Source: Phycisphaeraceae bacterium (GTDB lineage: Bacteria > Planctomycetota > Phycisphaerae > Phycisphaerales > Phycisphaeraceae). Taken from it: a DNA stretch of 64,000 bases. Position numbers and translations under genes: made by a program. The notes below the pieces were generated by a model that did not search any database, was not told the DNA's origin, and saw nothing but the letters and a program-made list of their open reading frames with translations. Of the stretch, positions 35,882-59,091 are shown one piece after another (within the stretch, counting starts at the first letter, position 1; every line of letters begins with the position of its first letter). Location: NCBI GenBank assembly GCA_963674705.1, contig OY771506.1, forward strand, positions 416,001 to 480,000, written 5' to 3'.

Positions 35882-35978
35882 GATTGACTCCAATCCGAAA
35901 GTTTGTACGACAGGCGCTACGCTCTAAGCGCATGTCCGGTTATCTGTGATGTCGTCGTGAATCAACGACAGTTAACGG

Positions 35979-37139: not shown

Positions 37140-37168
37140 CACAAACAAACCCGCCCCGACAGGCTCGA

Positions 37169-38341
37169 TCAATCTTCCAGGTTCATAAACGATTCACGCA
37201 CCGCCGCTCGCCTTGCCAGCATCGCCGCACCGATCGACACGCCACGCTCGCCGTGGGCGCTAGGCCGAATCTCCAGTTCCTTGCAGCCACGCAACACGCG
37301 CTGCTTCATCACACGCTCATTGAGCGCCTCGAAAAACGCGCGGTTCGTAACCTCAAGGCTGCCGCCCAGCACCACCACCGATGGATCAACCAGGTCGACA
37401 AGAATGCTCAAAAGCCTGCTGAACTGACCGACAAACGCCTCCAGCGATCCATCAAGCGCCGCATCTTCATTACCGAGTATTTGGATCTGCTCGTGGTTCA
37501 GCTTCATCTCGCCGATCATCGATCGCAGCCCGTCCAACTCGCCCGCCCCGTTATGCGCCCCTGATTGCAACTGCCCGTGCTGAATCACGGACATGCCCAC
37601 GCCGTATAACTCCGATGAATCGCTCTTGCCTGAACTCGCGTTCAGCGCGAGAAAAATCATCGAATCAGGCAATCCCGCGCCCAGGTGTTCCGCCTCGGCC
37701 CACGATGCAAGCTTCACATCGTTCTCCACGATCAAAGGCATCCCCCAGCGCTCTTTCACCTTCCCCGCAAGGTCGTAATCCGACAAACCAAGACGCCACG
37801 ACTGCACGATCCTGCCCGAACGAAAGTCCGTGATCCCCGGCACAGCAAAACCAAGCCCCGCGATCGGCGTCTCGTTTTCACGATCAACCGCAATCACGCT
37901 GCCCATGTAATCTTCAATCACGTTCAGCGCATCTTCGATCGATTCATCGTAAGGCACGCGACGATGATCGACTTCGTTACCCGCCGCATCCACCACCGTC
38001 ACGGAAATCTCAGAACCCTCGATAAAGAACCCGCCGAATCGGCCGTAGTCCGGGTTCATCTCCATCAATTCCTGCTTCTTGCCGACCGTATCACTCTTGC
38101 GCTTGCCCTTGGGCCTGACAAGATTGTGTTCAAGCAGATCGCGCACGACATACGTCAACGTCGATCGACCCATCTGCGTCATCTCACGCAACTGGCTGCG
38201 CGACTTCGGGCCGTGCTGTCGCAACAATTCCCACACGAGCAAACGATTGTGTGCGCTCGTCTCGCTGTGGTCCTGGCCACGCACCCGCATCGGGATGCGA
38301 CCGGCCTGCGTGATGTTCGTATTCGTCGTGGTTACCGACAC
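37169..38341 (-). CDS. ROK family transcriptional regulator (NagC/XylR-like)
   Basis: N-terminal HTH (GPKSRSQL..STLTYVVRDLL), GFAVPG, VENDV, GAGEL, VVVLGG. Confidence 0.88.
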   Translation of the reverse strand: MSVTTTNTNITQAGRIPMRVRGQDHSETSAHNRLLVWELLRQHGPKSRSQLREMTQMGRSTLTYVVRDLLEHNLVRPKGKRKSDTVGKKQELMEMNPDYGRFGGFFIEGSEISVTVVDAAGNEVDHRRVPYDESIEDALNVIEDYMGSVIAVDRENETPIAGLGFAVPGITDFRSGRIVQSWRLGLSDYDLAGKVKERWGMPLIVENDVKLASWAEAEHLGAGLPDSMIFLALNASSGKSDSSELYGVGMSVIQHGQLQSGAHNGAGELDGLRSMIGEMKLNHEQIQILGNEDAALDGSLEAFVGQFSRLLSILVDLVDPSVVVLGGSLEVTNRAFFEALNERVMKQRVLRGCKELEIRPSAHGERGVSIGAAMLARRAAVRESFMNLED

Positions 38342-40473: not shown

Positions 40474-41136
40474 TTACGCTGACAGTCTCCGTCGGCGAAC
40501 CGCCGTGCCCACAGCACCCGCGGCCAGCAACATCAGCGATGTCGGTTCCGGCACAGCACCGGCCTCGATCGCCGCGCCGCTGTCGTCATACGCCCAGCCA
40601 CGCACGGTAATACGCGTGTTGCCGGCTACCGCGCCGGGCTCGATCAATAAGTCCATCCAGCCGAAGTAACCTTGCGATGTCTGGATGCCCAAATAACCGC
40701 CTGAAGTAAATGTGCCCGAGTTGAGCACCTGCGCGCCGAAGAACACGCCGGCCTCGGTCGCGCTGCCGTCAATCACCGCGCCGGGCGCGAACGCCGTGGC
40801 GTAATTGAATGCTTCACCGCTGCCGGTAAACACCGTGCCCGCGTCGACATCGCCGTCGTCCGCAAACGCGGTGTTGTAGCCGCCGGTGCCTAACCGCACG
40901 TCCTGCACACCATCGTTATCAAGATCAAACGCATTCGCGCCGGTGTACGAAACCGGGTTGATCACGATGTCGAACGCAGGCGCCGCACCGTTGTACGTGC
41001 CGGAGTTGGCAACGATCGCCGCATCGGCGCTAGCGCCGGCGCTAAGTGCGAACGCGCCCATCCCGGCCGCACAGGCGTAACCCGCCCATTCACGCACCGG
41101 CTTCAAAACGGATTGACTGTCTTGCTCTCGCTTCAT
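40474..41136 (-). CDS. PEP-CTERM surface protein (YFGW...WAY domain), no dockerin
   Basis: GGGAG RBS; GYFGWMD..RGWAYDDSGAAIEAG directly before VPEP+TM+RRRR. Confidence 0.85.
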   Translation of the reverse strand: MKREQDSQSVLKPVREWAGYACAAGMGAFALSAGASADAAIVANSGTYNGAAPAFDIVINPVSYTGANAFDLDNDGVQDVRLGTGGYNTAFADDGDVDAGTVFTGSGEAFNYATAFAPGAVIDGSATEAGVFFGAQVLNSGTFTSGGYLGIQTSQGYFGWMDLLIEPGAVAGNTRITVRGWAYDDSGAAIEAGAVPEPTSLMLLAAGAVGTAVRRRRLSA

Positions 41137-41208
41137 CTTGCTCTTCTCCCTCCTGTTTCTTCAGGATCATTCAGCAACAACTTTTGTCACTGAGCATGTC
41201 TTAACTAT

Positions 41209-41347
41209 CCCCCTCTCCCCTTGGGAGAGCGCCGGGGTGAGGGCCAAATAACCCTACGTTTCCCGAGTAATTTGTCATCCCCGCACGGCGGGGATCCACG
41301 TCATTGGATTCATTACTCACGTGGATTCCCGCCTGCGCGGAAATGAC
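41209..41347. repeat. Two adjacent REP-like elements between the PEP-CTERM paralogs
   Basis: 41209-41243 is the CCCTCTCCC type; 41274-41347 reads GTCATCCCCGC...GCGGAAATGAC. Confidence 0.65.
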
Positions 41348-41358
41348 GTGTTTTAGTT

Positions 41359-42144
41359 TTAACCCCGCTGCGCCTTACGACGACGCACCGCAACACCCGC
41401 CGCACCCGCTGCAAGCAACATCAGCGAACCCGGCTCGGGAATGCTCGGCGTACCACCGCTCGGTGGCGTGCCTTCGTTCCAGTGATTCAACACAACATCC
41501 AGGTCGTCCAGGCCCACAAAACCATCGCCATTGATGTCGCCGGGGATCGCTGCCACACCGTTGTCGCCTGCCGCAATCGCCGCGCCGCTGTCTTCATACG
41601 CCCAGCCGTGCACCGTGATCCGCGTGTTGCCGGCAACCACGCCCGGCTCGATCGTCATCGCCATCCAGCCGAAGTAGCCCTGCGACGTCTGCAAACCCAT
41701 GTATCCAACAGATGCGAATGTGCCGGAGTTCAACACCTGCGCGCCGTAGAACGTCCCGGCCTCGACGGCCGTACCGTCAATCGTCGAGCCGGGTGCGAAC
41801 GCCGTGGCATACGCGAACGCATCGCCGCTGCCGGTAAACACCGTTCCGGCATCCGTATCACCATCGTCCGCGAACGCCGTGTTGTACCCGCCGGCACCCA
41901 GCCGCACGTCCTGCACGCCGTCGTTATCCAGGTCGAAGTAGTTTGCGTAGCCGTAGGTGATCGGATTGATCACGATGTCGAAGCTCGGCACACCAGCGTT
42001 ATAAGTCCCGCCGTTGCTGATAATTGCAGCGTCTGCCGCGTTCCCCAGGCCCAGCGCGAACGCCCCGAGGCCTGCCGCATGAACGTATTTTGACCATTCC
42101 AGATGTGACTTTGTCAACGTTGATGCTGCCTTCAATTCACTCAT
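41359..42144 (-). CDS. PEP-CTERM surface protein (YFGW...WAY domain) with dockerin-like tail
   Basis: GGAGG RBS before MSELK; close paralog of 40474-41136 plus GDINGDGFVGLDDLD and IPEP. Confidence 0.85.
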   Translation of the reverse strand: MSELKAASTLTKSHLEWSKYVHAAGLGAFALGLGNAADAAIISNGGTYNAGVPSFDIVINPITYGYANYFDLDNDGVQDVRLGAGGYNTAFADDGDTDAGTVFTGSGDAFAYATAFAPGSTIDGTAVEAGTFYGAQVLNSGTFASVGYMGLQTSQGYFGWMAMTIEPGVVAGNTRITVHGWAYEDSGAAIAAGDNGVAAIPGDINGDGFVGLDDLDVVLNHWNEGTPPSGGTPSIPEPGSLMLLAAGAAGVAVRRRKAQRG

Positions 42145-42245
42145 CTTCTTAAACCTCCTACAGTTAGAAAATTTCGATAGGACCAGCCAAGCCATGATGT
42201 CGCCCCGGGGGTGCTCAACTGCCACGCCTTGCCCTGGGTGCGTGG

Positions 42246-42302
42246 ATTTATCTTGACAGACGGGATTAGCCCTGTCAAGATAAATTCGTGCCGCGAACGA
42301 AT
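42246..42302. promoter_or_regulatory. Symmetric divergent promoter/operator region
   Basis: ATTTATCTTGACAG-N12-CTGTCAAGATAAAT perfect 14-bp IR; adjacent ATTCGT-N7-ACGAAT. Confidence 0.6.
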
Positions 42303-42371
42303 AAACCTTAATTTTCTTTTTTGGCCTCCACACCAACAGGCTCACGCCAACGAAACCAAGGACTCTAATCA

Positions 42372-44189
42372 ATGCATCCTATTGACTGGACTATAGTTAT
42401 TGGATATGTCGTCATCGCCCTCGGTGTCGGGCTCATGATGATGAAGAAGGCGTCGCAGAACCTCGGCGAGTTCTATCTCGCCGGGCGATCGCTGCCTTGG
42501 TGGGTCGCAGGCACCTCGCTCGTAGCTACCAGTTTCTCCGCGGATACCCCCCTCTTCGTCGCCGGACTTGTCCGCACCGAGGGCGTGTTCGGCAACTGGT
42601 TCTGGTGGTCCACCGCCATGGCCGCCCTCGCCACCGTCTTCTTCTTCGCCCGCCTCTGGCGCAGACTCGACATCCTCACCGACATCGAATTCCTCGTTGT
42701 CCGCTATGACCAGTCCCCCGCCCGCGCGGTGCTCCGCATCTTCCGCGCGATGTTTGACGGCATTCTCGTCAACTGCATCATCATGGCGTCCGTCACGCTC
42801 GCCGCCTCCAAACTCATCCAGACCATGCTCGGGCTCTCGGGCGACGCCCTGTTCACCATCCCCTTCGTTTGCGACATCACCTCCACCACGCTCGTCATGC
42901 TCTCGCTCGGACTGATCGCGCTGATCTACACCACCCTCTCCGGGCTCTACGGCGTGGTCTACACCGACCTCGTTCAGTTCACGCTCGCGATCATCGGCGC
43001 GTTCGCACTGGCGATCGCTGCGTACCTGGCTGCAGCGGAAAACGGGCCGGTCATGCAGCAGATCACCGCGCTTGAAAACTATCACGCCGAGCAGACCGCG
43101 ATGTTCCCGCCCATGCAAGGCAACGGCCTGGCGCTGTTCACCTTCATCGTCTACGTCGGCTTCTCCTGGTGGGGTGGCGCGCCCGGCAACGGTTTTGCCA
43201 TCCAGCGCCTGCTCGCCACGCGCTCTGAACGCGACTCCATGCTCGCGTTCCTCTGGTACAGCGTGTGTCACTTCGTCGTCCGCCCCTGGCCTTGGATCAT
43301 CGTCGGGCTCATTTCGATGTTGTACTTCCCCGGGCTTGATGATGCGGAAAACGCTTATCCACTCATGATCGAGCGTTTCCTGCCGATCGGACTCAAAGGC
43401 GTCATGGTCGCGTCGCTGCTCGCAGCATTCATGAGCACGCTCGATACACACCTGAACTGGGGCTCATCCTATCTCATTAACGATGTGTACAAACCCTACA
43501 TCAAGCCGCGCGATGACGATCGGCACTATGTGCTCGCTGCGCGCTGGTCGATGGTGTTGCTTACCGTGGCTATGCTCATCGTGACCACGCAGATCAACGG
43601 CATCCTCGATGCGTACAAGTACCTCGGCGTCATCACCGGCGGCGCAGGCACCGTCATGGTCGCTCGCTGGTACTGGTGGCGCGTCAATGTCTACAGCGAG
43701 ATCAGCGCGATGGCGGCATCGCTTATCCTCGGCAACATCGTCGCGTATTACCTGCCCGACAAGACGCTCGCCGATGGAACCTTCGCCACCTACTTCGGGC
43801 ACCGCTTCCTCATCAACATGTTCGGCTGCCTCGTCGTCTGGATCACCGTCACGCTGTTCATCCCCGCCAAACCCACCGCGCAGGCGATCGCGTTCTTCAA
43901 GAAGACCGGCGTCGGCGGGCCCGGCTGGAAGCGCGTCGCCGATGACACGCACACAACCATCCCGCCGATGAACTTCGGCTTCCACGTGCTCGGTTGGATC
44001 ACCGGCTGCGTCTTCATCCTCTGTTTGCTTCTCGGCGTCGGCGAAGTGATCTTCGTCCGCTTCATCCCGGCGGCGCTCTACCTCGGCGCATCGGTCATCG
44101 CGGGCGCGTTGCTCATCACCAAGTTCAGCAAGTTGTTTGAAAATCCAAAAGAAAACATGGCGGAGAATAGCGCGGTCGGGCCGGCGTGA
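42372..44189 (+). CDS. Sodium:solute symporter family transporter
   Basis: EFYLAGRSLPWW, ATSFSADTP, QRLLA, AAFMST; many TM helices. Confidence 0.92.
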   Translation: MHPIDWTIVIGYVVIALGVGLMMMKKASQNLGEFYLAGRSLPWWVAGTSLVATSFSADTPLFVAGLVRTEGVFGNWFWWSTAMAALATVFFFARLWRRLDILTDIEFLVVRYDQSPARAVLRIFRAMFDGILVNCIIMASVTLAASKLIQTMLGLSGDALFTIPFVCDITSTTLVMLSLGLIALIYTTLSGLYGVVYTDLVQFTLAIIGAFALAIAAYLAAAENGPVMQQITALENYHAEQTAMFPPMQGNGLALFTFIVYVGFSWWGGAPGNGFAIQRLLATRSERDSMLAFLWYSVCHFVVRPWPWIIVGLISMLYFPGLDDAENAYPLMIERFLPIGLKGVMVASLLAAFMSTLDTHLNWGSSYLINDVYKPYIKPRDDDRHYVLAARWSMVLLTVAMLIVTTQINGILDAYKYLGVITGGAGTVMVARWYWWRVNVYSEISAMAASLILGNIVAYYLPDKTLADGTFATYFGHRFLINMFGCLVVWITVTLFIPAKPTAQAIAFFKKTGVGGPGWKRVADDTHTTIPPMNFGFHVLGWITGCVFILCLLLGVGEVIFVRFIPAALYLGASVIAGALLITKFSKLFENPKENMAENSAVGPA

Positions 44190-44343: not shown

Positions 44344-45870
44344 TTACTCAAGCGTCAGCGCGGCAAACGCGAGCGCGGGCAGCTCGATCGTGATGTTCTT
44401 TCCCGACTGCCCGACGATCTGAGCGTTCACGATCTTGCCATGATCCTTGTCAATGTAGCGCAGCGTCGGCTTCAAACCTTCGATGGTTCTATCGAACTGA
44501 ATCTTTAGCCGCCGCGCGCCGTCTTGCTTGTTAAGCAGCAGGACCGCTTGCGCGCTATCTTCATCATCCGATGCTGCTATCACCACAAGCTGCTCGCCAT
44601 CATGCTTCACCTCAACCTGCTGCTTATCCAACACTGTTGAGAACAAACGCATCATCGACAGCGAAGCGGTTTCATGATGCGGCGGCTCGTGCGTGATGAT
44701 GCTTTCGAAGCGATCTTGCCTGGGCCAGACCTCGCGTGAGCTTTGCCAGAGCAGCGTCCATAAACATGTGATGTCCGCGCCGCCATCGAGAAACGCCATC
44801 AGCATTTCACTTTGCATCAGTGCGATCTGCGCATCGGGTAAGTCCCATGTAAAGTCGCTTGGGCCGATGTTCCATTCGAGCACGACGATGCGGATGTCGG
44901 GAAAGCCCGCATCACTGCACATCTTGCAGATCAATTTCATGTCTTCGCCGAACGGCCGATCCATCCAGTCGTCTTTCCATTGATCGCCCGACCGCATCGG
45001 TGTCTGGCTTAGCCACTTGTCCCACGACGAGGTGCCCCACGACCAGTACCAGTGCATGTCGATGTAGTCGACGACGGGGCCGGCAGTTTCGATGAAGTGC
45101 TTGAAACCCTTGAAGTGATTGATCGTTTCCGACGATGCGGGGTTCACGATCAGCTTCGCATCGGGAAACTCCTTCTTGATCGCTTTGCCGAAGTAAAGCA
45201 CATCTTCCGCGTATTGATTTTTTCGGAACGTATACGCCGCCTCGTAATGCCAGGGTTCGTTATCCAAAAACCAGTACTTGACTTTAAAACCTTTCTCCTT
45301 GCAGTAGCGCATCAGGCGCAGCGCTTCATCAAGACCTTCTGCACGTCGGTCGAAACGCCTGCCGCAAGACAGATTCAAACCAATAACAGGTTCGGCGTTC
45401 AACGCACGGCAACGCTTCATGTAGTCGTCGATACTCATGAAGTTTTCGTTGGTTTCCCAGTCTTTCGGATCGACCCAAGTCACCTGAAACGGGCCACGGT
45501 CGCGCGGATTGCCGAAGACTTTAGGGTCGTCGTGGATGTCTTCGTAGCCATTCACGCCCGGATGCTCCCAGTGATAGAAGCTCGTTTCTTCTCCGCCGGG
45601 ATAGCGTAGCGCGCCGATACCTGCCTTGCGTACCTTGTCTTCGAGGTTGAACTTCTCCCAGAATTCATCGGTATCGTTGAAGTAGCTGAGGTTGATGCCG
45701 AGGAAGCTATGGGGGATGTGTCTGTGGACCTGTTGCGTGTTGACCGTGATGGTTTCCGCTTTCTCTTGTGCGTCAGCGGCCGGCGTTTGCTGTTCGGCCT
45801 GGCCGACAGTGCAGCTTGCGAGCAGCAAGCAGAACAGAACGAACAGGTGTGTGACTGGTTGGCGTGCCAT
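44344..45870 (-). CDS. Secreted clan GH-A glycoside hydrolase (GH51/GH44/GH79-like)
   Basis: Signal peptide; LRYPGG, WFLDNEP (acid/base), VLEWN (nucleophile), beta-sandwich C-terminus. Confidence 0.7.
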   Translation of the reverse strand: MARQPVTHLFVLFCLLLASCTVGQAEQQTPAADAQEKAETITVNTQQVHRHIPHSFLGINLSYFNDTDEFWEKFNLEDKVRKAGIGALRYPGGEETSFYHWEHPGVNGYEDIHDDPKVFGNPRDRGPFQVTWVDPKDWETNENFMSIDDYMKRCRALNAEPVIGLNLSCGRRFDRRAEGLDEALRLMRYCKEKGFKVKYWFLDNEPWHYEAAYTFRKNQYAEDVLYFGKAIKKEFPDAKLIVNPASSETINHFKGFKHFIETAGPVVDYIDMHWYWSWGTSSWDKWLSQTPMRSGDQWKDDWMDRPFGEDMKLICKMCSDAGFPDIRIVVLEWNIGPSDFTWDLPDAQIALMQSEMLMAFLDGGADITCLWTLLWQSSREVWPRQDRFESIITHEPPHHETASLSMMRLFSTVLDKQQVEVKHDGEQLVVIAASDDEDSAQAVLLLNKQDGARRLKIQFDRTIEGLKPTLRYIDKDHGKIVNAQIVGQSGKNITIELPALAFAALTLE

Positions 45871-45915: not shown

Positions 45916-47388
45916 TTATTGAGCGTGGACTTCGCCGCGGCGTTGTTCGAGCGCGTTGCGCGTCTCGGTAGCGCGTTTGGCGGTGATCGGGTAGAAGTAC
46001 AAGGCAACCAGCGCGAACAGCGCTGTCAACGCCGGGCCGCCGGCGAGGAAGAGTCGCATCTTGGTGAATGTCCCCGGCATCTGGTCGACACCGGCCTCGA
46101 CGACAAAACCCGCAACCGCAAGCGCCAAGCCCGTGCCGAAGTATGCTACCGATACGACCATCTTCTCGAGCCAGGAGAAGACCGCGCTGAACATCCCTTC
46201 GCGCCGCTGGCCGTGCTGTAATTCATCTTCATCGCAGACGTCCGCCATCATGGACGCGAGCATGATCTTCACCGCGACCCACATCGGCCCACAAAGAAGC
46301 GGATCGATGAGGATGATCGGGTCGACGGTGATTTTCCATTCGCCGAATCCGACAAGGTACATCGTGTGACCGGGCGTGAAGATGAACCATTTGGCGATGC
46401 CGCCGACAACCATGAGTGCATAGACGAAGTAGAGCGAGCCGTGCTTGCCGAACTTATTGGCAAGCCAGGTGATGACGGGGATCGCGGCGAAGCCAACAAC
46501 ACCATAACCCGTCGTCAGCAGACCCTTCTGGATAAGCCCAGCGCCCTTGTTGCCTTCGTTCATAAAGTAGACGAGCAGGTACTGGTCGATCCCCATCGCG
46601 AGCACGCCGGAGAGCGTGTTGAGTACGATGATCGAAACAAGAACTAAAAACGGTTTGTTACTGCACGCGCTCTTGGCACTATCCCAGAGCTTGACGGTTT
46701 GTTGATTAGACACTTTGTGGAAGAAACGTTCGCGAACGAACAAGCCGGGCAAAGTGCCGATGCCCGCCATGATGGCGATCCCGACGATCCACGCCATGAC
46801 ATGCACGCCTTCGATGGTGATGTCTTCGGCATCAACAACAAGCGCGAGACTGATCGCGGTCGCCAGTGGGAGCATCCACCCGCCGAGCAGTTCGCCCAGC
46901 TTATGGAAGAACGCGAGGAATGCCATGACGCGCGTTCGTTCGTGGTAGTCCGGCGTCATCTCGTAGGACAGCGCAGCAAAAGGCACAGAAAACACGGTAT
47001 ACGCAGTGAAAAACGCGATCTGTAAAACGATGAAGTAGATGATCTTCCAGGCGTCGCTGAACGCGGCCGGGACGTACCAGATGGCAATGAAGATCAGGCC
47101 CATCGACACCGCGCCGACGACGATGAAAGGCTTGCGGCGTCCGAAGCGTGAATGACAGTTGTCAGAAATCCGCCCCATGATGGGATCAGACAGCGCGTCC
47201 CAGAAGCGAGGGATCATCAGCGCGATGCCGACCCAGAACGCGCTGATGCCGAGCATCATGTTGTAGACGGGGTACGCCAGCACGCTGATGCCTGCGTAGC
47301 CGAAGAACGCGGCGAGCGCGCCGATGCCCAGCGAAGACTTTTCAAAAAGTCCGACGCGGTCCTCGGGGCGTGTGGTGCTTGATGCCAT
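45916..47388 (-). CDS. GPH-family (MelB-like) MFS sugar transporter
   Basis: WDALSDPIMGRISD..SRFGRRKPF, EMTPDYHERT, MMADVCDEDE..RREG. Confidence 0.92.
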   Translation of the reverse strand: MASSTTRPEDRVGLFEKSSLGIGALAAFFGYAGISVLAYPVYNMMLGISAFWVGIALMIPRFWDALSDPIMGRISDNCHSRFGRRKPFIVVGAVSMGLIFIAIWYVPAAFSDAWKIIYFIVLQIAFFTAYTVFSVPFAALSYEMTPDYHERTRVMAFLAFFHKLGELLGGWMLPLATAISLALVVDAEDITIEGVHVMAWIVGIAIMAGIGTLPGLFVRERFFHKVSNQQTVKLWDSAKSACSNKPFLVLVSIIVLNTLSGVLAMGIDQYLLVYFMNEGNKGAGLIQKGLLTTGYGVVGFAAIPVITWLANKFGKHGSLYFVYALMVVGGIAKWFIFTPGHTMYLVGFGEWKITVDPIILIDPLLCGPMWVAVKIMLASMMADVCDEDELQHGQRREGMFSAVFSWLEKMVVSVAYFGTGLALAVAGFVVEAGVDQMPGTFTKMRLFLAGGPALTALFALVALYFYPITAKRATETRNALEQRRGEVHAQ

Positions 47389-47444: not shown

Positions 47445-47696
47445 TCAAACTTCAGCGGGCCAGTCTTCTTCATCCTTGGCTCGGATGGCATCGACGGTCC
47501 AGCGTTTGAGCATGTGTTTGTAACGCTGCTTGTAGACCTGGTAGAGCGCGAGGATCTCCATCTCGTCGCCGACAAAGTTGCAGCGGCGGCAATAGAAGTC
47601 TTCCGACCCGGCTTCCTGCAAGAGGTCGTAATCGATCTCGCGCATCAGGCAGATCGGGCAGCGGTAGTTTATTTTGCCTGTTCGACCTTGAGACAC
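47445..47696 (-). CDS. Small Cys4 zinc-ribbon-like protein
   Basis: CPIC..CRRC; GTG start with GAGGAG RBS inside the end of the upstream gene (28-nt overlap). Confidence 0.75.
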   Translation of the reverse strand: MSQGRTGKINYRCPICLMREIDYDLLQEAGSEDFYCRRCNFVGDEMEILALYQVYKQRYKHMLKRWTVDAIRAKDEEDWPAEV

Positions 47697-49504
47697 GTCA
47701 CAAGCTCCTCGTTGAGTCCGATGGTTTTAACTAATCCGATCTTCAGGTTGGGTGCGAACGAATACCCCTCTTCAAAGTAGCCCCGGCAAGGCTCGGTTAA
47801 CGGCATCAAACTGACCTTCGTCTGCACCATCGGGATAACAGCCTCAACAACCTGCGCATCATCGAGCGAGGCTTCACGACAAAGATATTCATAAGAAACG
47901 TCTTCGCGTTTACCATCCTTACTTAGAACTGAAAGTGTGCAGCCGGTGAGGTCTTCGGGGTATTCGGTCGTGCCCCAGCACGAGGTCAGAAATTCATCGA
48001 CCTCGATCGTCGCATCCGGCTTGGATGCACTGATAAGCTTGCGTTTTATCTCGATTTTTCCTGTATTTGGCGCGAAACGGTACGTCGTCGCTAACTCAAT
48101 CGTCAGGTCCTTGAACTCGATCGTAACGGGCTTGACGGTCAACACGCGCACTTCCCCATCCTGCGAAGCGCGGCCGATCGTTCTGCATGAACTCAGATCG
48201 ATCTCTTCACCCTGGTAGCGCACCTTGCAACTCTTGATCGCGCCTTCGCCGGCATAGTGAACGAAAGGCCCGGCTCTATAGCGCGACTGCACGATGTAGG
48301 GATAGGATGCATCCTGGTTCGCCTCCGTGCCCGCGCCGCAAGGGCGCTGGAGTTTGGAAGCGTATGGGCGCAGGTCGGTAATTGCGCCGCCGAGTTTCAG
48401 ATCGATCTGCACGCGGAACTTGCTGTCGACATACCAGTATGCCTGGTTCTTCGTGCCGAAGGCGATGTCTTTCCAGTGGCCGACGATCGGGCCGCTGCGC
48501 GGTTGGTTGGCGCGGAACCAGTCGGCGAACTCGGTCATGGTCATGTCGACGACTTCGTTTTGCTTCTTTAATTCGCCGTAGTATGCGAGGAAGTCTTCGT
48601 AGCTTTTCTTGAGGATGCGGTAAGGCGCTTCCCACCGCCCGGCCTTGCCCATCCAGCCGGGGCCGACATAGACGAGGTTGTAGCTGAAGCCGTTGTTTTG
48701 ATCTTTGAGTACGCGGTAATGGTCGACGATGTTGTACATGTAGGGAAGACGTTCGTCTTCGTAGTTCAGACCGCGGATGATGTTCTGCGGGTGTGTGCCC
48801 CACATGTCGCCGGGATTATCCATGATCGCCAGCAGGTCGCGCGAAAGGTGCGGCACGGCGACGATGCCAAGGTCGTCTTCTTCGGATTCGGCGATGGCGT
48901 GCATGTTTTGTTTGGAAGGGATCCACGCTGTCCATGGCGAGCCGTCCATGATGGTGTACCACGAGTTGTTCGCGTGGCGGAAAACTTTCGGGCCTTCCTC
49001 GAAGCAGGTCGTGACGGCGGTCTTGACCATCGGGTACTTTTGTTTAATGAACGCGACGAGTTCGGCATCCATGAAGTACGAGCCTGTCGAGGTGGGGTAG
49101 AACCCGAAGACTTCCATGAATCGCTCGAAGGAATCGACCACGATGCGCTGCTTGTCGGCCATGTTATAAAGCCAGATGGCCGGGTCTTTGCGCTTGTATT
49201 TTTCGCGGAATTCCCTGCAGTTTACGCCTAAAAACGTGTGGCCGATCTCGTCGCCGAACTGCTTGTGATGCTCCTTGGCGATCGCGCAGGCCTCGTCGTT
49301 GTACAAGGCTGCGTACGTCATCTGGATCGTGGTTTTCAGGCCGTTCTGATGGGCGATATCCTGCTGAAGCCTGAAGATGTCGAGCGACTCGGTAACGACT
49401 TCGCGCTTACTGAGTTGTTCGGATTGACCCTGCTGCGCATCGGTGTCGATGTATTCGGGGACAAGCTCCGGACGATGGATCACGTTGAGCGCGAACATAT
49501 CCAA
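47669..49504 (-). CDS. Cytoplasmic hypothetical carbohydrate-active protein (NodB/GH57-like barrel suspected)
   Basis: 611 aa, no signal peptide, strong codon bias; GDEIGH and FMEVFGFYPTSTGSYFMD recall CE4/GH57-like barrels; beta-rich C-terminus. Confidence 0.55.
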   Translation of the reverse strand: MDMFALNVIHRPELVPEYIDTDAQQGQSEQLSKREVVTESLDIFRLQQDIAHQNGLKTTIQMTYAALYNDEACAIAKEHHKQFGDEIGHTFLGVNCREFREKYKRKDPAIWLYNMADKQRIVVDSFERFMEVFGFYPTSTGSYFMDAELVAFIKQKYPMVKTAVTTCFEEGPKVFRHANNSWYTIMDGSPWTAWIPSKQNMHAIAESEEDDLGIVAVPHLSRDLLAIMDNPGDMWGTHPQNIIRGLNYEDERLPYMYNIVDHYRVLKDQNNGFSYNLVYVGPGWMGKAGRWEAPYRILKKSYEDFLAYYGELKKQNEVVDMTMTEFADWFRANQPRSGPIVGHWKDIAFGTKNQAYWYVDSKFRVQIDLKLGGAITDLRPYASKLQRPCGAGTEANQDASYPYIVQSRYRAGPFVHYAGEGAIKSCKVRYQGEEIDLSSCRTIGRASQDGEVRVLTVKPVTIEFKDLTIELATTYRFAPNTGKIEIKRKLISASKPDATIEVDEFLTSCWGTTEYPEDLTGCTLSVLSKDGKREDVSYEYLCREASLDDAQVVEAVIPMVQTKVSLMPLTEPCRGYFEEGYSFAPNLKIGLVKTIGLNEELVTCLKVEQAK

Positions 49505-49545: not shown

Positions 49546-50694
49546 TCAGGTCAGGCTGGTGACCTGCGAGGACTTTTGCGTAAAGCGTGCGAACGCATCC
49601 AGCGCGGGCAGCGCTTCACCGGATTCATCGAACAGCGCGCGGGGCCAGCAGGTTTGGGCATCCGGCTCATCTTTGTAGCTGTCAACGTGAATCCATTCAG
49701 GCGCCCAGTAGAACAGGCCATCGAGACCGGGTGCGCTGCGTGATCCACGCACGACCTTGAGCAGGTCGGTGACGAAACGGTTTTGCCCTTCGGGAGTTAA
49801 CGGATAGCCGACGGGTTGCGTGCTGGGGATGCCGAAGGTTTCGGTGTCGGTCTGTATGTCGGGCGAATCGCTGTAAGCGGGGTGCGCTTTGTATGGGAAC
49901 GCGGTTTCGACGACGTAGATGCGCTTGTTGAACTGCTGGCGCAGGTGCCGGACAGTGTCGCGCAGGTCGGTCATCGAGCCGTGCCAGAACGGGTAGTACG
50001 ACAAGCCGATGGCGTCGTAAGGTACTTGCTGGATCTCGATCGATCGGAAGTAAGCCGAGGCTGCACGGTGGTTTCCGCCACGATCGATGTGGAGCATGAT
50101 CTGGACGGGTTGGTTTGCACCTTCGCGCACGCCTCGCACGCCGGCTTTGAGCAGGCCGGCGAATCGGCCCCAGGCTTTGGCGTTGTCGGCGAAGTCCTTC
50201 TCGCTCCATGAAGGCTCGTTGGTCAGGTGGGCGTGGGCGATGCGGCCGTGGTCCCAGAGCATGCCGGGGGTGATTTCGTTGCCGATCTGGACGCTGGACG
50301 GGCAGCAGCCGCGGGCGGAGAGGTCCTGGAAGACGTCGCGCGTGTAGGTGAACATGGCGTCGACGGTATCTTTGTAACTCAAGTCCTGCCAAGCCTTTGG
50401 GATGTATTGCTTGGCGGGATCGGCCCAGGTGTCGGAGTAGTGCATGCAGAGCATAACCTGCATGTCGGCGTCGATGCATTGCCTGGCGAGATCGCGTGTG
50501 TAGGCGAGGTCGTTGACCTGCGCGCCTTGGCCGGAGGGCGTGTGGAAGAGGCGAAGGCGGGCACAAGTGATGCCGGCTTCGCGGAGGATGGTCAGGGGCG
50601 GCGCGGGGACGGCGTTGCGGGTGTAGACGGCCCCGTGGTCGACCAACTGCTTAAGCATCGAGATGTCGGCTCCGAGGAGCGGCTGCTTAGTCAT
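49546..50694 (-). CDS. GH53 endo-beta-1,4-galactanase, no signal peptide
   Basis: GADIS, RLRLF, HYSDTWADPAKQ, QIGNEI, GLSYYPFWHG, VVET. Confidence 0.92.
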   Translation of the reverse strand: MTKQPLLGADISMLKQLVDHGAVYTRNAVPAPPLTILREAGITCARLRLFHTPSGQGAQVNDLAYTRDLARQCIDADMQVMLCMHYSDTWADPAKQYIPKAWQDLSYKDTVDAMFTYTRDVFQDLSARGCCPSSVQIGNEITPGMLWDHGRIAHAHLTNEPSWSEKDFADNAKAWGRFAGLLKAGVRGVREGANQPVQIMLHIDRGGNHRAASAYFRSIEIQQVPYDAIGLSYYPFWHGSMTDLRDTVRHLRQQFNKRIYVVETAFPYKAHPAYSDSPDIQTDTETFGIPSTQPVGYPLTPEGQNRFVTDLLKVVRGSRSAPGLDGLFYWAPEWIHVDSYKDEPDAQTCWPRALFDESGEALPALDAFARFTQKSSQVTSLT

Positions 50695-51225: not shown

Positions 51226-52368
51226 TTGGCGGTTGATTTGAAGACCAGCGACGACAAACAAAACCAGCCCCGCCCCCGAGTGACCAAGCCCAGGCGTGCG
51301 CCCAAGTCGCGCGTGACGATCCGTGATGTGGCGGTCGAGGCGGGCGTGAGTATCGGTGCGGTGTCGGACATCATTAACCGGGGCCTGTCACATAATTACG
51401 CGGCCGCGACGCAGGACCGTGTGCGTGCGGCGATGGATCAACTGGGGTATCGGCCGGACCGTGCGGCGCAGGCGCTTAGGCGTGGCCGAACGGATACAGT
51501 CGGCGTGATGCTGTCGCGCGGTTTGGAGAACCCGTACTACGGCCGGCTGTTCCACGAGATCCAGGTGGCGCTTGAGCGGTACAAGCTCAGTTCCGAATTG
51601 ATGGTGTACCCGGCGCAGGAATCGAAAGACTCGCGCCGCGGCGCCGATTGGCTTATCGGCAAGGGCGTAGACGCTTTAATCGTCGGGCCTTTGTATTACT
51701 GGGATGAGCATATCCTCGAGGATTTACGGTCATTGAAAGGCGGCGCGTGTCCGATCGTGACGTTCGGCGCGGTGCGTGATGAAGCGGGGATGCATCATAT
51801 TCTGTTTGAAGATGAGAGTTGCGGGCGGATGGGCGCGGAGTATTTGATCGGTAACGGTCACAAGCGGATCGCGTACCTGGGCGCCTATTCCGCGGCCGAA
51901 GCCGGCAAGGGCAGGGGAACGGTGCAGGAAGGCGTGGAGCGCGTGCTTAAAGCCAATGCCCTGCTCGACCGCGACTGGTTCATCGAAGGGCCCGACCACG
52001 GGCGGTTTGATGAGTGCAAGATGATGGCGGAGAAGTTCGCGGGATTGTGGCTGGACACGGACCCGGCCGACCGCCCCACTGCCGTGATGTGCAAGAACGA
52101 CCAGATGGCGATCACGGCCCTGGCGATCTTTTACGAGTTCGGGATCAAGGTGCCGGAGCAATTGTCGGTGATCGGCTACGACAACGTGCCGGAGAGCGAG
52201 TTTATCGTGCCGTCGCTGACGACGATCGACAACGCGATCAGCGCGCGGGTGGCGAGCGTGGCGGGCCAGGTAGCGAAACTACTTAGTATAAAAGAAGTTG
52301 CATCATGGAAAGCGCCTGCGATCGCGCCATCGTTAATCGCCAGGCGATCGGTGAAGCAGTGTGTTTGA
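51226..52368 (+). CDS. LacI family transcriptional regulator
   Basis: VTIRDVAVEAGVSIGAVSDIIN, LGYRP, VPEQLSVIGYDN, PSLTT. Confidence 0.94.
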   Translation: MAVDLKTSDDKQNQPRPRVTKPRRAPKSRVTIRDVAVEAGVSIGAVSDIINRGLSHNYAAATQDRVRAAMDQLGYRPDRAAQALRRGRTDTVGVMLSRGLENPYYGRLFHEIQVALERYKLSSELMVYPAQESKDSRRGADWLIGKGVDALIVGPLYYWDEHILEDLRSLKGGACPIVTFGAVRDEAGMHHILFEDESCGRMGAEYLIGNGHKRIAYLGAYSAAEAGKGRGTVQEGVERVLKANALLDRDWFIEGPDHGRFDECKMMAEKFAGLWLDTDPADRPTAVMCKNDQMAITALAIFYEFGIKVPEQLSVIGYDNVPESEFIVPSLTTIDNAISARVASVAGQVAKLLSIKEVASWKAPAIAPSLIARRSVKQCV

Positions 52369-52424: not shown

Positions 52425-52536
52425 TTGACAGAGATGGGAGAATCGTTAAGATTTAAGCAGTTTGAAACGTTCAATCAACACTTGGCGGAGTCTAGGTTGT
52501 GCTTCTAAGCCCGACCGCTCAAATCGAAACGTTCAA
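52425..52536 (+). promoter_or_regulatory. Sigma70 promoter with two candidate LacI operators
   Basis: TTGACA-N16-TAAGAT (52425-52452), then TTGAAACGTTCAA (52462) and TCGAAACGTTCAA (52524). Confidence 0.7.
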
Positions 52537-52660
52537 ATCAGCGGTTGAAAACCGCACACAGATATACCGCCGCCCGACGGGATTCGGGCAAGACTATATA
52601 AGTCACTTCGACAGCTTCACAGCGTTGGATTCTTCAACAACACCAAGAGGAGGAATGAGA

Positions 52661-53392
52661 ATGGACGGAGTAAGGAGAAAGTTGTGCGTGGCCGCCGTAG
52701 CCATGTTCGGCTGCGCGGCGATGGCGAGCGGGGCGACGTTTACCGAAGGCAATCAGGTCGGCTGGACCTGGAGCGACATCCAGGGCCAGACGTTCGGCGC
52801 GGGCATTGAGCCGGTGGCTGATCCGGGCTTGGCTGCAGGTGATCCGGTGTACCTGACCAGCTTTGAGCTGACCCGCAGCGGCGCCGGCTACGGCGATCCG
52901 GATGCGGATGTGTACCTGGCGATCATGCCCGCCGCGTTCTATGACTGGAACAGTGCCCCCACGACCGGCGACGCTGTCGGCATCTCGGAAAATTCATACA
53001 ACCCCTCGACGGTTGCTGAGAACACCGTGATGGCGTTCACGTTCGATACGGGTCTTGAGCTTGCGTATGACGGCGTGTACTCGGCGGTGTACGTCACGAT
53101 CAGCGGCGGCGCGTTGACGCCGGTGACGGTCGGCTCGTTGATCGCCGACTGGAATGAAGTCTCGCCGGGCGTGTGGATGCCCGATCCGAATTACGGCGGC
53201 ACGAACAACTGGGACGCGGTTGTGCTGTACGCCGACTATGACGGCAACGGTTATCAGGAAGGCGGCTCCATGGCCAGCGACGCGAACTTCCTGGCAAGCT
53301 TCTCAACGGAACCCATTCCGGAACCGGCATCGGCGGCGCTACTGCTGGGTGGCACGGCGGTACTGGTATCGGCACGCAAACGTCGCAGTTAA
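52661..53392 (+). CDS. PEP-CTERM surface protein, no dockerin
   Basis: GAGGAGG RBS, signal peptide, IPEP+TM+RKRR. Confidence 0.85.
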   Translation: MDGVRRKLCVAAVAMFGCAAMASGATFTEGNQVGWTWSDIQGQTFGAGIEPVADPGLAAGDPVYLTSFELTRSGAGYGDPDADVYLAIMPAAFYDWNSAPTTGDAVGISENSYNPSTVAENTVMAFTFDTGLELAYDGVYSAVYVTISGGALTPVTVGSLIADWNEVSPGVWMPDPNYGGTNNWDAVVLYADYDGNGYQEGGSMASDANFLASFSTEPIPEPASAALLLGGTAVLVSARKRRS

Positions 53393-53412
53393 TGCGCGTA
53401 AATCCTCCCTGT

Positions 53413-53440
53413 CTGCCCGTGTGTTAAAGCACGCGGGCAG
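53413..53440 (+). terminator. Intergenic stem-loop (terminator or mRNA stabiliser)
   Basis: CTGCCCGTGTG-TTAAAG-CACGCGGGCAG hairpin with only a weak U tail. Confidence 0.45.
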
Positions 53441-53497
53441 GCCTTTCCCGGCCGATTGGCCGGATGCAGAGCGGCACAAAAAAGGAGCAAGGATAAC

Positions 53498-54445
53498 ATG
53501 GCAACGAGCAAGACAAACAAGCTGTTGGGGGCTGCCGTCGCGATCGCAGGTTTAGCGTCGCTTTCGGCGACAAGCGGTTTTGCCCAGACCTTTACGGAAG
53601 GGAACATCGCGGGTACGACATGGTCGGACGTTTGGGGCCAGGGATTTGTGGTCGGTCTGGAAGCGACTCCTGATCCGGGTCTGACTGAAGGCGACGAGGT
53701 AACGCTGGTTGACTTCACGAGCTACCGCGCCGGCGCGGGCTTCGGCGATCCGGATGCGGATGTGTACCTAGTGATCACGGAAGGGACGTTCTTCGATTGG
53801 AACGGTGAGTTGGATGACTGGACGCCGACCACCGCGGACCTGGTCGCGGTCTCAACCAACTCATTTAATCCGTCGACGCTCGCAGCGAATGATGCGATGA
53901 CGTACACGTTCGACTCCAGTGCGGTTCTGCTGGCGGGCAGCAACTACGGCGCTGTGTATGCGACGATCGACGAGAATGACATGGTCACGCCGGTGCAGGT
54001 AGGCAGCATCATCGGCGACTGGTATGAAGATGAACTGCTGGGCATCTGGTTACCCGTGCAGAACCACGGCGACCAGGAATTATTCGAAGCCAGCGCGCTG
54101 TTTGCTGACTGGGACGGCGAAGGAAGTCTGGACGGCTGCCAACTCGGTTGCGACATCAGCTTCCTGGCAACATTCTCGGTCGGCGCCGGTTTGGAAGGTG
54201 ACCTGAATGGCGACGGGTTTGTTGGTCTGGATGACCTTGACATCATCCTCACCGCGTGGAACCAGAGCGTGACGGCGGGCAGCGAGCCCGATCCTTCGGG
54301 CGACGGATTTGTCGGGCTGGATGATCTGGACCTGGTATTGAATAACTGGAACGCGGGCACGGCTCCGGCCGCGGCGGTGGTGCCTGAACCGGCGACACTC
54401 GGGCTCTTGAGTCTGGGTGGGTTGGCGCTACTGCGTCGCAAGTAA
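53498..54445 (+). CDS. PEP-CTERM surface protein with double dockerin-like tail
   Basis: Paralog of 52661-53392 (TFTEGN..TWSD..GQ; GDPDADVYL); two GDGFVGLDDLD; VPEP. Confidence 0.85.
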   Translation: MATSKTNKLLGAAVAIAGLASLSATSGFAQTFTEGNIAGTTWSDVWGQGFVVGLEATPDPGLTEGDEVTLVDFTSYRAGAGFGDPDADVYLVITEGTFFDWNGELDDWTPTTADLVAVSTNSFNPSTLAANDAMTYTFDSSAVLLAGSNYGAVYATIDENDMVTPVQVGSIIGDWYEDELLGIWLPVQNHGDQELFEASALFADWDGEGSLDGCQLGCDISFLATFSVGAGLEGDLNGDGFVGLDDLDIILTAWNQSVTAGSEPDPSGDGFVGLDDLDLVLNNWNAGTAPAAAVVPEPATLGLLSLGGLALLRRK

Positions 54446-55459: not shown

Positions 55460-55633
55460 GAACGTCTCAATTGAGTTCACTGAATCTGTTTGCAACGGGT
55501 GCCACGTTTTGACCGCGCAGCGGCAAAGCGTGCCTTACCGATACACACTTTGCCCTTCGGGTCAAAGTGTGGCACCCAAAGCGACTGTCTAAAAGTGGGG
55601 ATGGATATATCCAAGCATTGTGGGAGTCGGAGG

Positions 55634-57097
55634 ATGATGGATAGACAACGCGTGAGTAAGGGCCTGTCGGTTGGGAAGTATTCACGACGGGCAGGGTTAT
55701 TCATCACGACGGCTGCGGTTTGCGCGTTGACGGTGTCAATCGCGAGTGCGGATACCACCGAATACTACGTCGGCGCATCCATGAACTTTGCTTCCTACCT
55801 GCAGGACAAAGGCATCGTTTATAAAGAGAACGGAGTGGCGACCGATCCGTATGCGAGCATCGCCAATCACGGCGGGAATATCGTGCGGCTGGAGCATGTG
55901 TTCGGGCCTTACGAGAACTCCTATACAAACGGTTACGGCCCGGTGGACTGGGGCGAGTGGAACCGGGTGAAGAACGATGTGGCGACGGCTAACTCGTATG
56001 ATTTGGATGTGTTCTTGACGCTGACGTTCAAGCCGCAGGCGTCGCATATCAATGCGGGCTCGTCGAATTACATCCCCGATGAGTGGGTGGGTTTGAGTGA
56101 CTACCAGCTCAAGCAGAACATTTATAACTCGACGTACAGCATGCTGGATGAGCTGGGAGCGGCGGGGACGCTGCCGGCGTTTGTGTCGATCGGCAACGAA
56201 GTGAACGGCATGTTCATGGAGAACCCGTATGGGTACAGCTACGATGCGCAGCGGATGACGGACATGATGAACGCGGGGTTCGACGCGGTGAAGGCTATCG
56301 CGGCGGCGTACAACACGGATATTCATGCGGCGGCGCACATCTTCGGGCCTGACAATATTGATTGGTGGCTGAACACGGCGGACTGGACGAACCTGAACGA
56401 CTTCGATACGGTCGCGCTGTCGTACTACCCGGACTGGCACAGCTTCAACGACTTCGGCGGCGATTGGGGGACGCTGGCGCAGTGGGCGAAGAATACCTAC
56501 GGCAAGAACGTGTTTGTGCTGGAGACGGCGCAGTCGTGGACGAACGGGTTCAGCGACAGCAAGAACAACGTGTATACGTACAACCCGTACCCGGGCCAGT
56601 CGCTTTCGCCGGCAACGCAACGGCAGTTCCTGGCGGACATGGCGCAGGAGTTGATCGACGGCGGCGGGCTTGGTGTGATCACGTGGGGCACGGAATGGGT
56701 CGGGTCGGAAGGCGTGCTTGCGTATGCCGATCAATGGGGCGACGGTTCGAGCTGGGAGAACAATACGTACTGGGACTTCGACAACAACCTGCACGACGGC
56801 ATCAACTGGATGGCGGACATCCAGGACCTGTACGGACCCGACGAGATCGAGGGCGACCTGGATGGTGATGGGTTTGTGGGCTTGGATGATCTGGATATCG
56901 TGCTTGGCAGTTGGAACCAGAGCGTGACAGCGGGCAGCTCGCCTGATCCGACGGGTGATGGGTTTGTCGGGCTGGACGATTTGGACGTGGTGCTGGGTAA
57001 TTGGAACGCGGGGACGCCGGCAAGCGCTGTGATCCCCGAGCCGATGGGGCCGGTTGTATTCGGTTTATTTGCACCGATGCTGTTAAAGCGTCGGTGA
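55634..57097 (+). CDS. Surface GH53-like galactanase with double dockerin-like tail and PEP-CTERM
   Basis: Signal peptide; SIGNEV, ALSYYP, VLET, SSWENN; IPEP tail. Confidence 0.82.
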   Translation: MMDRQRVSKGLSVGKYSRRAGLFITTAAVCALTVSIASADTTEYYVGASMNFASYLQDKGIVYKENGVATDPYASIANHGGNIVRLEHVFGPYENSYTNGYGPVDWGEWNRVKNDVATANSYDLDVFLTLTFKPQASHINAGSSNYIPDEWVGLSDYQLKQNIYNSTYSMLDELGAAGTLPAFVSIGNEVNGMFMENPYGYSYDAQRMTDMMNAGFDAVKAIAAAYNTDIHAAAHIFGPDNIDWWLNTADWTNLNDFDTVALSYYPDWHSFNDFGGDWGTLAQWAKNTYGKNVFVLETAQSWTNGFSDSKNNVYTYNPYPGQSLSPATQRQFLADMAQELIDGGGLGVITWGTEWVGSEGVLAYADQWGDGSSWENNTYWDFDNNLHDGINWMADIQDLYGPDEIEGDLDGDGFVGLDDLDIVLGSWNQSVTAGSSPDPTGDGFVGLDDLDVVLGNWNAGTPASAVIPEPMGPVVFGLFAPMLLKRR

Positions 57098-57300: not shown

Positions 57301-59091
57301 ATGCTTGACAGTTCAATGGACGTGTTGTTGCCGGTGCTTGCTCAAGAAAGCGCGAATCTGGCCGGCTTCGACTGGTTGATCATCGGATTGTACTTTGTTC
57401 TGCTGGTCGGGATTGTCTGGTGGTCGAGCAAGAAACAGGACACGACGGCGGATTACTTCCTGGCTGGGCGTAACGTCGGGTGGTTCGTGATCGGTGCGTC
57501 GTTGTTTGCATCGAATATTGGTTCAGAGCACGTGGTGGGTCTTGCCGGGCAGGGTGCGGTATCGGGTATGGCGATGGCGCACTACGAGCTGCACGCGTGG
57601 ATCATGATCATGCTGGCCTGGTTGTTCGTGCCGTTCTATTACAGGACGGGTGTGTACACGATCCCCGAGTTTCTGGAGAAGCGCTTCGGGCCGACGGCGC
57701 GGTGGATCCTGTCGCTGGTGTCGCTGATTGCTTACATCTTCACGAAGGTGTCGGTAACGGTGTACGCCGGTGCGGTGGTATTTTCGGCGTTACTGCCGAA
57801 CACGTTTGGGAATGTCGCGGAATCCATCAATCAGATGCTGAGCCTGACGGGCGACGCCGCGTGGACCGGCGGGGATGCGGCGTTCTGGATCGGCGCGATC
57901 CTGACCGTGGTGCTGACGGGTATCTACACCGTCTTCGGCGGGCTGCGCGCGGTGCTCTACACCGACACGGTGCAGGCGATCCTGCTGTTGATCGGTTCGG
58001 TGTGCATCACGACGATCGGGCTGAAACATCTGGGTGGGTGGGGTGAGTTGCAATCGATGGCGAAGGAGAATGCGGATGCGTTTTCGTTGTGGCGGCCTTG
58101 GGATGATCCGGAATTCCCGTGGCTGGGCATCTTGATCGGTTCGCCGATCGTCGGGATCTGGTACTGGTGTACGGATCAATACATCGTGCAGCGGACGCTG
58201 TCGGCAAAGAACCTGCGTAACGCGCGGCGCGGCGCGCTGTGGGGCGGCGTGCTGAAGGTCTGGCCCGTGCTGATCTTCATCATCCCGGGCATGATCGGCT
58301 GGGCGCTGCACACCAAGGGGATCATCCAGATCCCGTTGAAGGCAGACGGCGGGCTGGACGGGGACAAGGTGTTCCCGACGCTGGTGATGTCGCTGCTGCC
58401 GACGGGGCTGCGCGGGCTGGTGGTGGCGGGCCTGCTGGCGGCGTTGATGAGTTCGCTGTCGTCGTTGTTCAATTCCTCGGCGTCGCTGTTCACGGTGGAC
58501 GTATATGAGAAGCTGCGGCCGAATATGCCGGAGCGGCACCTGGTGCGTGTGGGGCGGATTGCGACGTTGATCGTGGTGCTGGCGGGGCTGGCGTGGATCC
58601 CGGTGATGAAGCTTGTCGACGACGGCGGGTTGTATCAGTACCTGCAATCGGTGCAGGCGTATCTCGCCCCGCCGATCACGGCGGTGTTCCTGCTGGGTCT
58701 ACTGTGGCGCGGCACGACCAGCGCTGGTGCGGTCGCGGGGCTGTTGATCGGGTTTGCGATCGGGTTCAGCAAGACCATCGTGCAGGCGCTGTACGGGGCC
58801 TCAGAAGACAAGATCAACAGCCCGGAAGTTCTGGCTCAACTCGGTGACTTCAATTGGCTTTACTTCTCGTCGATCCTGTTTGGCATCTGCGTGGTGGTGA
58901 TCCTTGCGGTCAGTGCGGTGACACGACGTGCGGAAGAGGAGAAGATCGTCGGCCTAACCTGGGGCGGCGGTACCGAGGAGGACCGACGCGAGCTGCGCGA
59001 GAGCTGGGGCGCGTTTGATATCGTACTGACCGTACTGGTGATCGGGCTGGTGCTGGGGATGTATGGGTACTTCACGTTCTGGCTGATGTAG
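57301..59091 (+). CDS. Sodium:sugar symporter (SGLT-like)
   Basis: DYFLAGR, SLFASNIGSEH, WYWCTDQYIVQR, AALMSSLSS. Confidence 0.94.
   Translation: MLDSSMDVLLPVLAQESANLAGFDWLIIGLYFVLLVGIVWWSSKKQDTTADYFLAGRNVGWFVIGASLFASNIGSEHVVGLAGQGAVSGMAMAHYELHAWIMIMLAWLFVPFYYRTGVYTIPEFLEKRFGPTARWILSLVSLIAYIFTKVSVTVYAGAVVFSALLPNTFGNVAESINQMLSLTGDAAWTGGDAAFWIGAILTVVLTGIYTVFGGLRAVLYTDTVQAILLLIGSVCITTIGLKHLGGWGELQSMAKENADAFSLWRPWDDPEFPWLGILIGSPIVGIWYWCTDQYIVQRTLSAKNLRNARRGALWGGVLKVWPVLIFIIPGMIGWALHTKGIIQIPLKADGGLDGDKVFPTLVMSLLPTGLRGLVVAGLLAALMSSLSSLFNSSASLFTVDVYEKLRPNMPERHLVRVGRIATLIVVLAGLAWIPVMKLVDDGGLYQYLQSVQAYLAPPITAVFLLGLLWRGTTSAGAVAGLLIGFAIGFSKTIVQALYGASEDKINSPEVLAQLGDFNWLYFSSILFGICVVVILAVSAVTRRAEEEKIVGLTWGGGTEEDRRELRESWGAFDIVLTVLVIGLVLGMYGYFTFWLM

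Follow-up and report, generated by a model that had tools for sequence, protein, structure and literature searches.

Two genes on the minus strand of the window (the whole 64,000 nt stretch that was analysed), encoding a 611 aa protein and an 83 aa Cys4 protein, probably specify a cytoplasmic, two-subunit enzyme that cleaves beta-galactosides, either as a phosphorylase or as a hydrolase. Phosphorolysis of imported beta-galacto-oligosaccharides to galactose-1-phosphate (Gal-1-P) is tentatively, and slightly, preferred to hydrolysis. The wider proposition, that the pair belongs to a new glycoside phosphorylase family of wide distribution, the first on a barrel of the GH57/GH38/CE4 type, needing a zinc-ribbon microprotein and providing an ATP-saving route from galactan to Gal-1-P, is more doubtful. 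The pair and the surrounding genes are as follows.

44344–45870, minus strand: secreted 508 aa protein with weak GH51/GH79 likeness (domain/PDB matches)
45916–47388, minus strand: GPH/MFS_2 glycoside:cation symporter (domain matches)
47445–47696, minus strand: small subunit gene, Cys4 protein of 83 aa, GTG start
47669–49504, minus strand: large subunit gene, 611 aa, TTG start, product predicted to be cytoplasmic
47705–47710, minus strand: Shine-Dalgarno-like GAGGAG of the small gene, located within the large gene
49546–50694, minus strand: GH53 endo-beta-1,4-galactanase lacking a signal peptide (382 aa from the likely start at 50694)
51226–52368, plus strand: LacI-family regulator, transcribed divergently from the GH53 operon
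55490–57097, plus strand: second GH53 with a PEP-CTERM-like tail, true start probably later
57301–59091, plus strand: sodium:solute symporter (SSS; domain matches)
59289–60485, minus strand: galactokinase, galK (domain matches)

The two open reading frames share 28 nt by their coordinates, as the first-pass annotation had stated. The GAGGAG site, which it had taken to be the small gene's own ribosome binding site, lies 8 nt from the GTG start and doubles as Glu-Glu codons of the large protein; of 80 related loci, 77 have a similar word ahead of the small gene, among them some in which the two genes are separate. Neither protein has a hydrophobic N-terminus (maximum KD11 0.74 and 0.48 for the pair, versus 2.94 for the secreted neighbour), in agreement with the claimed lack of signal peptides. 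A shadow ORF or other artefact was ruled out by conservation and by GC3 values of 0.71–0.73, and both genes are real. A scan for promoters and terminators gave signals no better than chance.

The GH53 without signal peptide, the large and small genes, the GPH symporter and the secreted 508 aa protein form a tight run on one strand, and the second GH53, the SSS transporter and galK all lie within 10 kb of it. The GH53 at 49546–50694 is the probable first gene of the operon holding the pair, and the second GH53 is likely a surface enzyme. The setting described earlier, with the pair between a cytoplasmic GH53 (upstream) and a GPH transporter (downstream) at a locus with galactanases, importers and galK, was thus confirmed. 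The reported lack of GH2, GH35 and GH42 held for the 34 window ORFs scanned, but GH2 and GH35 are encoded elsewhere in the genome; no convincing GH42 was found in it. The same genome encodes a GH112 away from the window and has no match to GalT. A single protein of the UDPGP family (C1:946330-947262) may act on galactose-1-phosphate there.

Several other features of the window were recorded. The secreted 508 aa protein (best PDB match E 7e-7) has relatives next to the pair and a GPH transporter at 13 of the 80 loci, and is a candidate clan-A glycosidase for galactan or arabinogalactan. PEP-CTERM-like proteins occur at 40474–42372 (minus), 52499–54445 (plus) and 55490–57097 (plus), some with a dockerin-like repeat (GDxNGDGFVGLDDLD); the adjoining minus-strand genes at 40474–41136 and 41359–42372 look like tandem paralogues. 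At 19517–28504 (minus) three large proteins with CsgG-like matches at their N-termini are encoded side by side, one of them (1592 aa) with many ankyrin repeats, and a separate cluster of chitin/hexosamine type at 33260–38341 (minus) comprises a ROK regulator, a GH18, a prepilin-like protein and a GH20.

Neither protein of the pair matched Pfam or NCBIfam, and PDB sequences gave no match by phmmer or with a close profile. No Pfam domain of GH2, GH35 or GH42 was present in the large protein or the relatives scanned, and the GH112 domain (PF09508) was not matched in the Pfam scan; membership of these families was rejected. Of 6,959 candidates, 2,355 are related to the large protein at E ≤0.001, and at least 599 of 600 candidate stretches in species genomes were confirmed. 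The best 80 stretches are 51–98% identical to it and come from Planctomycetota, Ignavibacteriota, Verrucomicrobiota, Chloroflexota, Spirochaetota and Bacillota, with 51–58% identity for the relatives from Chloroflexota and Bacillota. Distribution is patchy: the family was found in 3 of 41 related genomes, gave two strong matches among 401 genomes of the phylum, and occurs in 33 of 301 sampled Lachnospiraceae genomes. The relatives listed are named 'hypothetical protein' throughout, the one exception being a cluster member of 331 aa with a stray galactanase label. At two of the 80 loci (L067, L078) the large gene is broken into two ORFs, by frameshift or sequencing error. The literature search, which covered subscription journals thinly so that prior characterisation is conceivable, found no description of the family and no report of the gut-bacterial two-subunit enzymes of similar size that the first-pass annotation had mentioned. 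Among the beta-galactosidase and phosphorylase families treated in the available parts of PMC11739564, PMC13757512 and PMC8950772, nothing resembles the pair.

The pairing of the two genes is far above chance. A small gene was present at all 80 of the best large-gene loci, overlapping by 28 nt in 65 and by 25 nt in five; among the remaining loci it begins at most 101 nt downstream in seven and lies 1.2–2.8 kb away in three. An even draw of 301 Lachnospiraceae genomes contained 33 with a strong large-subunit match, of which 32 had a strong small-subunit match adjoining the large gene, while in the 33rd (G530) the start of the small gene is lost in an N gap; a single weak small-subunit match (E 2e-4) was unpaired across all 301. 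At two distant paralogues (L124, L125) a small gene is again present, though diverged. In two distant full-length relatives, P0167 and P0171, the Cys4 domain is fused at the C-terminus (small-subunit HMM, E 1e-8 and 6e-6, respectively); since these proteins are 47% identical and have a linker in common, a common assembly error is unlikely. Five matches to the small domain in longer proteins look like read-through or chimeric gene calls, and neither P0173 nor P0505 was accepted as a fusion. The question raised at the outset, whether homologues always pair, is answered positively by the 80 loci, the 33 Lachnospiraceae genomes and the two fusions, and this is good genomic evidence that the pair would form a functional unit.

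The link of the pair to galactosides is strong. Genes were counted within 8 kb of the pair at the best 80 loci and at 31 Lachnospiraceae loci (two from G634; two partial loci left out, and G041 outside the set). At 66 of the 80 loci and 25 of the 31 at least one galactose marker is present, so that the expected galactoside setting was largely borne out; the exceptions are 14 of the 80 without any marker, eight of which are shorter than 17 kb, and one paralogue among sulfatases. GH53 is found in 51 of the 80 loci (34 of the 44 full-length ones) and in 21 of the 31. Genome-wide, 26 of 33 Lachnospiraceae genomes with the pair carry GH53 versus 27 of 268 others, a comparison in which kin are not independent and relatedness inflates any test. 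Some loci without GH53 have GH20, GH112 or GH36-like neighbours, which suggests galactosides other than galactan; GH112 is near the pair in 11 of the 80. The contexts of the distant paralogues rest on two loci, L124 (G043) and L125 (G014): one lies among sulfatases with a GPH transporter and the other immediately precedes a GH94 phosphorylase gene, a hint of subfamilies that act on other substrates.

An enzyme of GH2, GH35 or GH42 is encoded no more than 8 kb away at 33 of the 80 loci and at 11 of the 31, although the GH2 matches are not necessarily all beta-galactosidases. The pair therefore often coexists with beta-galactosidases rather than replacing them. This weakens the first-pass proposal that the pair fills a missing beta-galactosidase step, and undoes the argument that it is the only candidate for that activity. 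As for galactose metabolism, galT without galK occurs in two of the 80 loci and galK without galT in four; galT is present in five of the 31 Lachnospiraceae loci, three of them without galK. The galK-absence test on the 301 Lachnospiraceae genomes gave no support for phosphorolysis, since galK is kept in all 33 genomes with the pair (266 of 301 overall).

The model of the large protein (pLDDT 87.9, pTM 0.90) has a (beta/alpha)7 barrel at about residues 1–335, followed by a beta-supersandwich at about 340–611. Its best fold match is 3LM3 (Z 35.5, rmsd 2.9, 369 aligned residues, 14% identity; Foldseek E 8.6e-14), then CE4-like chains (Z 18–20), GH57 chains (Z 17) and mutarotase-like sandwiches. 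A deep profile of the large-protein family recovers 3LM3 at E 0.02, and the corresponding Pfam family DUF3863 (PF12979) matched two of 38 family members weakly (best E 0.0036) and did not match the window's protein. The large protein is thus a distant relative of the functionally uncharacterised DUF3863 fold; no relevant paper on the function of 3LM3 was found. In the small protein, C13, C16, C36 and C39, the CxxC..CxxC pattern pointed out earlier, are invariant in 80 of 80 aligned sequences. Its model, a ribbon plus a helix, gave weak fold matches (best Z 4.0); a zinc-ribbon-like fold is predicted, with zinc as the predicted metal and iron possible.

Conservation was examined in 38 large-subunit sequences with identities down to 25%. 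The polar residues kept are H10, R11, E86, D146, C167, E169, E170, H219, R222, D223, H238, R244 and R410, and the motif C-F-E169-E170-G is invariant. An alignment to a profile of 30 GH57 proteins was weak (hhalign probability 30%), and in it what we take to be the GH57 sites, a Glu nucleophile after beta4 and an Asp acid/base after beta7, fall at positions 139–145 and 276–285. Asp or Glu occurs at 139–145 in none of the 38 sequences and at 276–285 in at most 11% of them; D146 (37 of 38) begins the helix after the first stretch. Ordinary GH57 membership was rejected for want of a conserved carboxylate at these aligned sites, with the caveat of the weak alignment. The metal triad of CE4 enzymes consists of an Asp on beta1 and a His-x3-His on beta3. 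In the large protein beta1 ends in H-R-P without Asp, and H89 is present in four of 38 sequences, so ordinary CE4 membership was rejected as well. The suggestion of a CE4/GH57-like barrel accordingly stands for the fold (Z 17–20), whereas the catalytic residues of both families are apparently not kept.

A further unnamed family, whose barrel has no Pfam or PDB match, aligns to the large-protein family at 99.8% probability (hhalign). Its members are L126:7714-9519, L127:7773-9497, L128:8068-10485, L129:4443-5978, L130:1758-3311 and L131:7922-10300, one of which adjoins a GH127. This family has an invariant Glu at beta7 where the large-protein family has G-P-G-W, and may comprise hydrolase cousins of the large protein. 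No small partner was found near its genes or near that of 3LM3.

Expression evidence may be available from Clostridium phytofermentans. Its galactan operon comprises a binding protein, two permeases, the hypothetical gene Cphy3587 and a GH53-CBM13 of 514 aa, as given in the available parts of PMC4230839. A Konateibacter locus (L075) shares this gene order; there the pair takes the place of Cphy3587, and the GH53, of 512 aa, has an N-terminal stretch that agrees by eye with the printed start of Cphy3586 at 49 of 53 residues. Read counts in the available supplements of PMC4230839 give an estimated length of 597–612 aa for Cphy3587. From synteny and length, rather than from its own sequence, Cphy3587 very probably belongs to the large-subunit family; the listed cluster members included no C. 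phytofermentans accession, and scanning metagenomes with primers gave seven loci containing neither GH53 nor the pair. On galactan compared to glucose, Cphy3587 rises 754-fold, galE 38-fold, galT 16-fold and galK 1.8-fold, the last ratio being biased because galK is already high on glucose; at 142 RPKM on galactan, against 13–21 on xylose, xylan, starch and galactomannan, galK is about 7–11 times higher (PMC4230839, available parts). The same parts of that source report GH2, GH1, GH94 and GH112 genes up at most 2.3-fold on galactan versus glucose, one GH2 expressed at 260 RPKM, and 13 CAZymes induced on galactan, none annotated as a beta-galactosidase or GH112.

In the scheme tentatively preferred, a surface GH53 would cut beta-1,4-galactan, the GPH and SSS transporters (ABC transporters in Bacillota) would import the oligomers, and the cytoplasmic GH53 would shorten them. 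One Glu of C-F-E169-E170-G (or E86) could then act as general acid in the large subunit, with H10/R11, H219, R222, H238, R244 and R410 holding phosphate in place of a carboxylate nucleophile, and the Cys4 protein would complete the enzyme as a structural or lid subunit. The Gal-1-P formed would pass to GalT/GalE, or in the window's genome possibly to a UDP-sugar pyrophosphorylase. The expected pattern of inverting phosphorylases is the loss of one carboxylate and the gain of conserved Arg/His. Phosphorolysis is favoured by the missing Asp/Glu at the GH57 carboxylate sites and the G-P-G-W at beta7, by neighbours that include GH112, galT without galK and, beside a distant paralogue, GH94, and by co-located beta-galactosidase families, which suggest that the pair performs a non-redundant reaction. 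It is also favoured by the rise of Cphy3587, galT and galE on galactan without an induced beta-galactosidase or GH112 (PMC4230839, available parts). It is disfavoured by the retention of galK in every Lachnospiraceae genome with the pair, by loci with galK and no galT, by the missing GalT match in the window's genome, and by the near-invariant E86, D146, E169, E170 and D223, which could form an ordinary hydrolase pair.

Those carboxylates are the basis of a competing explanation, somewhat unlikely in our estimation, in which the pair is a two-subunit hydrolase similar to an exo-beta-1,4-galactosidase, of a new GH family, using two of the five residues, with galK acting downstream. Pairing, fold and context fit it equally, GH2/35/42 are missing nearby in 47 of 80 and 20 of 31 loci, and both the galK genes and the 7–11-fold higher galK expression on galactan (PMC4230839, available parts) are in keeping with release of free galactose. 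However, in about 40% of loci a co-located GH42/GH2/GH35 would make such an enzyme redundant, carboxylates seem to be missing from the usual beta4/beta7 sites, and the induction of galT and galE far exceeds that of galK in the same source. Redundancy would be avoided by an accessory enzyme that acts on galactan or RG-I fragments without releasing galactose: a side-chain glycosidase, a metal-dependent de-O-acetylase, or a transgalactosylase (disproportionating) like the GH57 4-alpha-glucanotransferase. The two-domain layout of that enzyme (1K1W/1K1X), the CE4-like chains as next-best fold matches, H10, H219 and H238 as residues that could be metal ligands, and the GH112 and GH51/79-like neighbours suggestive of RG-I side chains all speak for it. 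We consider it unlikely, as the Asp-His-His triad of CE4 is missing, the GH53-free loci that carry GH20, GH112 or GH36-like genes indicate galactosides more broadly, and C. phytofermentans would be left with no induced enzyme for the imported oligomers (PMC4230839, available parts). Improbable, and least favoured, is a large protein that works alone or is a non-catalytic sensor or binding protein, the Cys4 protein being merely a chaperone, regulator or redox/metal helper. The partnerless 3LM3 and L126–L131 family, and the three loci with a distant small gene, are compatible with this; strict two-way co-occurrence, the conserved translational overlap and the two natural fusions speak against it, and 51–58% identity to the Chloroflexota and Bacillota relatives, along with invariant polar residues that cluster, is in line with an enzyme.

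If the pair cleaves beta-galactosides, it would found a new CAZy family, fill an unnoticed hole in the use of pectic galactan, for example in C. phytofermentans, and give a functional lead for 3LM3/DUF3863. The often unannotated partner of 70–83 aa, if needed, could explain why single-gene screens missed the activity. Phosphorolysis would in addition mean a new fold for phosphorylases and an ATP-saving route for galactan, perhaps also for lactose-type galactosides, in gut and environmental bacteria that is annotated in no database. Another possible benefit is a natural beta-1,4-galactosyl phosphorylase with which galacto-oligosaccharides or lactose analogues could be made; in the available text of a 2022 review, lactose phosphorylase figures solely as an engineered enzyme.

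Among known systems, the closest in structure is 3LM3 (BDI_3119 of Parabacteroides distasonis, Pfam DUF3863), titled 'putative glycoside hydrolase/deacetylase', which has 434 residues in the structure compared with 611 in the large protein; the dedicated Cys4 partner is a feature of the latter. The CE4/NodB deacetylases and their relatives (3QBU, 1Z7A, 3RXZ, ArnD) have the same barrel fold (Z 15–20), to which the large protein adds the supersandwich domain. Like the large protein, GH57 enzymes (4-alpha-glucanotransferase 1K1W/1K1X, amylopullulanases 9JLR and 7E1Y) and GH38 alpha-mannosidases combine a seven-stranded barrel with a following beta-supersandwich, but they belong to alpha-glucan or mannoside contexts, whereas the large protein has a beta-galactoside context and a separate Cys4 subunit. 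The chemistry proposed for the pair is that of the GH112 phosphorylases co-located with it at some loci (GNB/LNB and Gal-beta1,4-Rha phosphorylases), which are inverting and yield alpha-Gal-1-P (PMC8950772, available parts). GH112 enzymes are single-chain (beta/alpha)8 proteins, whereas the pair has two chains and no sequence similarity to them; GH112 was not among the fold matches listed for the large protein, the model of which shows seven barrel strands. In gene layout the pair resembles LacLM (GH2), in the available accounts two overlapping genes for one beta-galactoside-cleaving enzyme; LacLM is a split GH2, whereas the pair has no GH2 Pfam domain and its small chain is a Cys4 protein of 70–83 aa.
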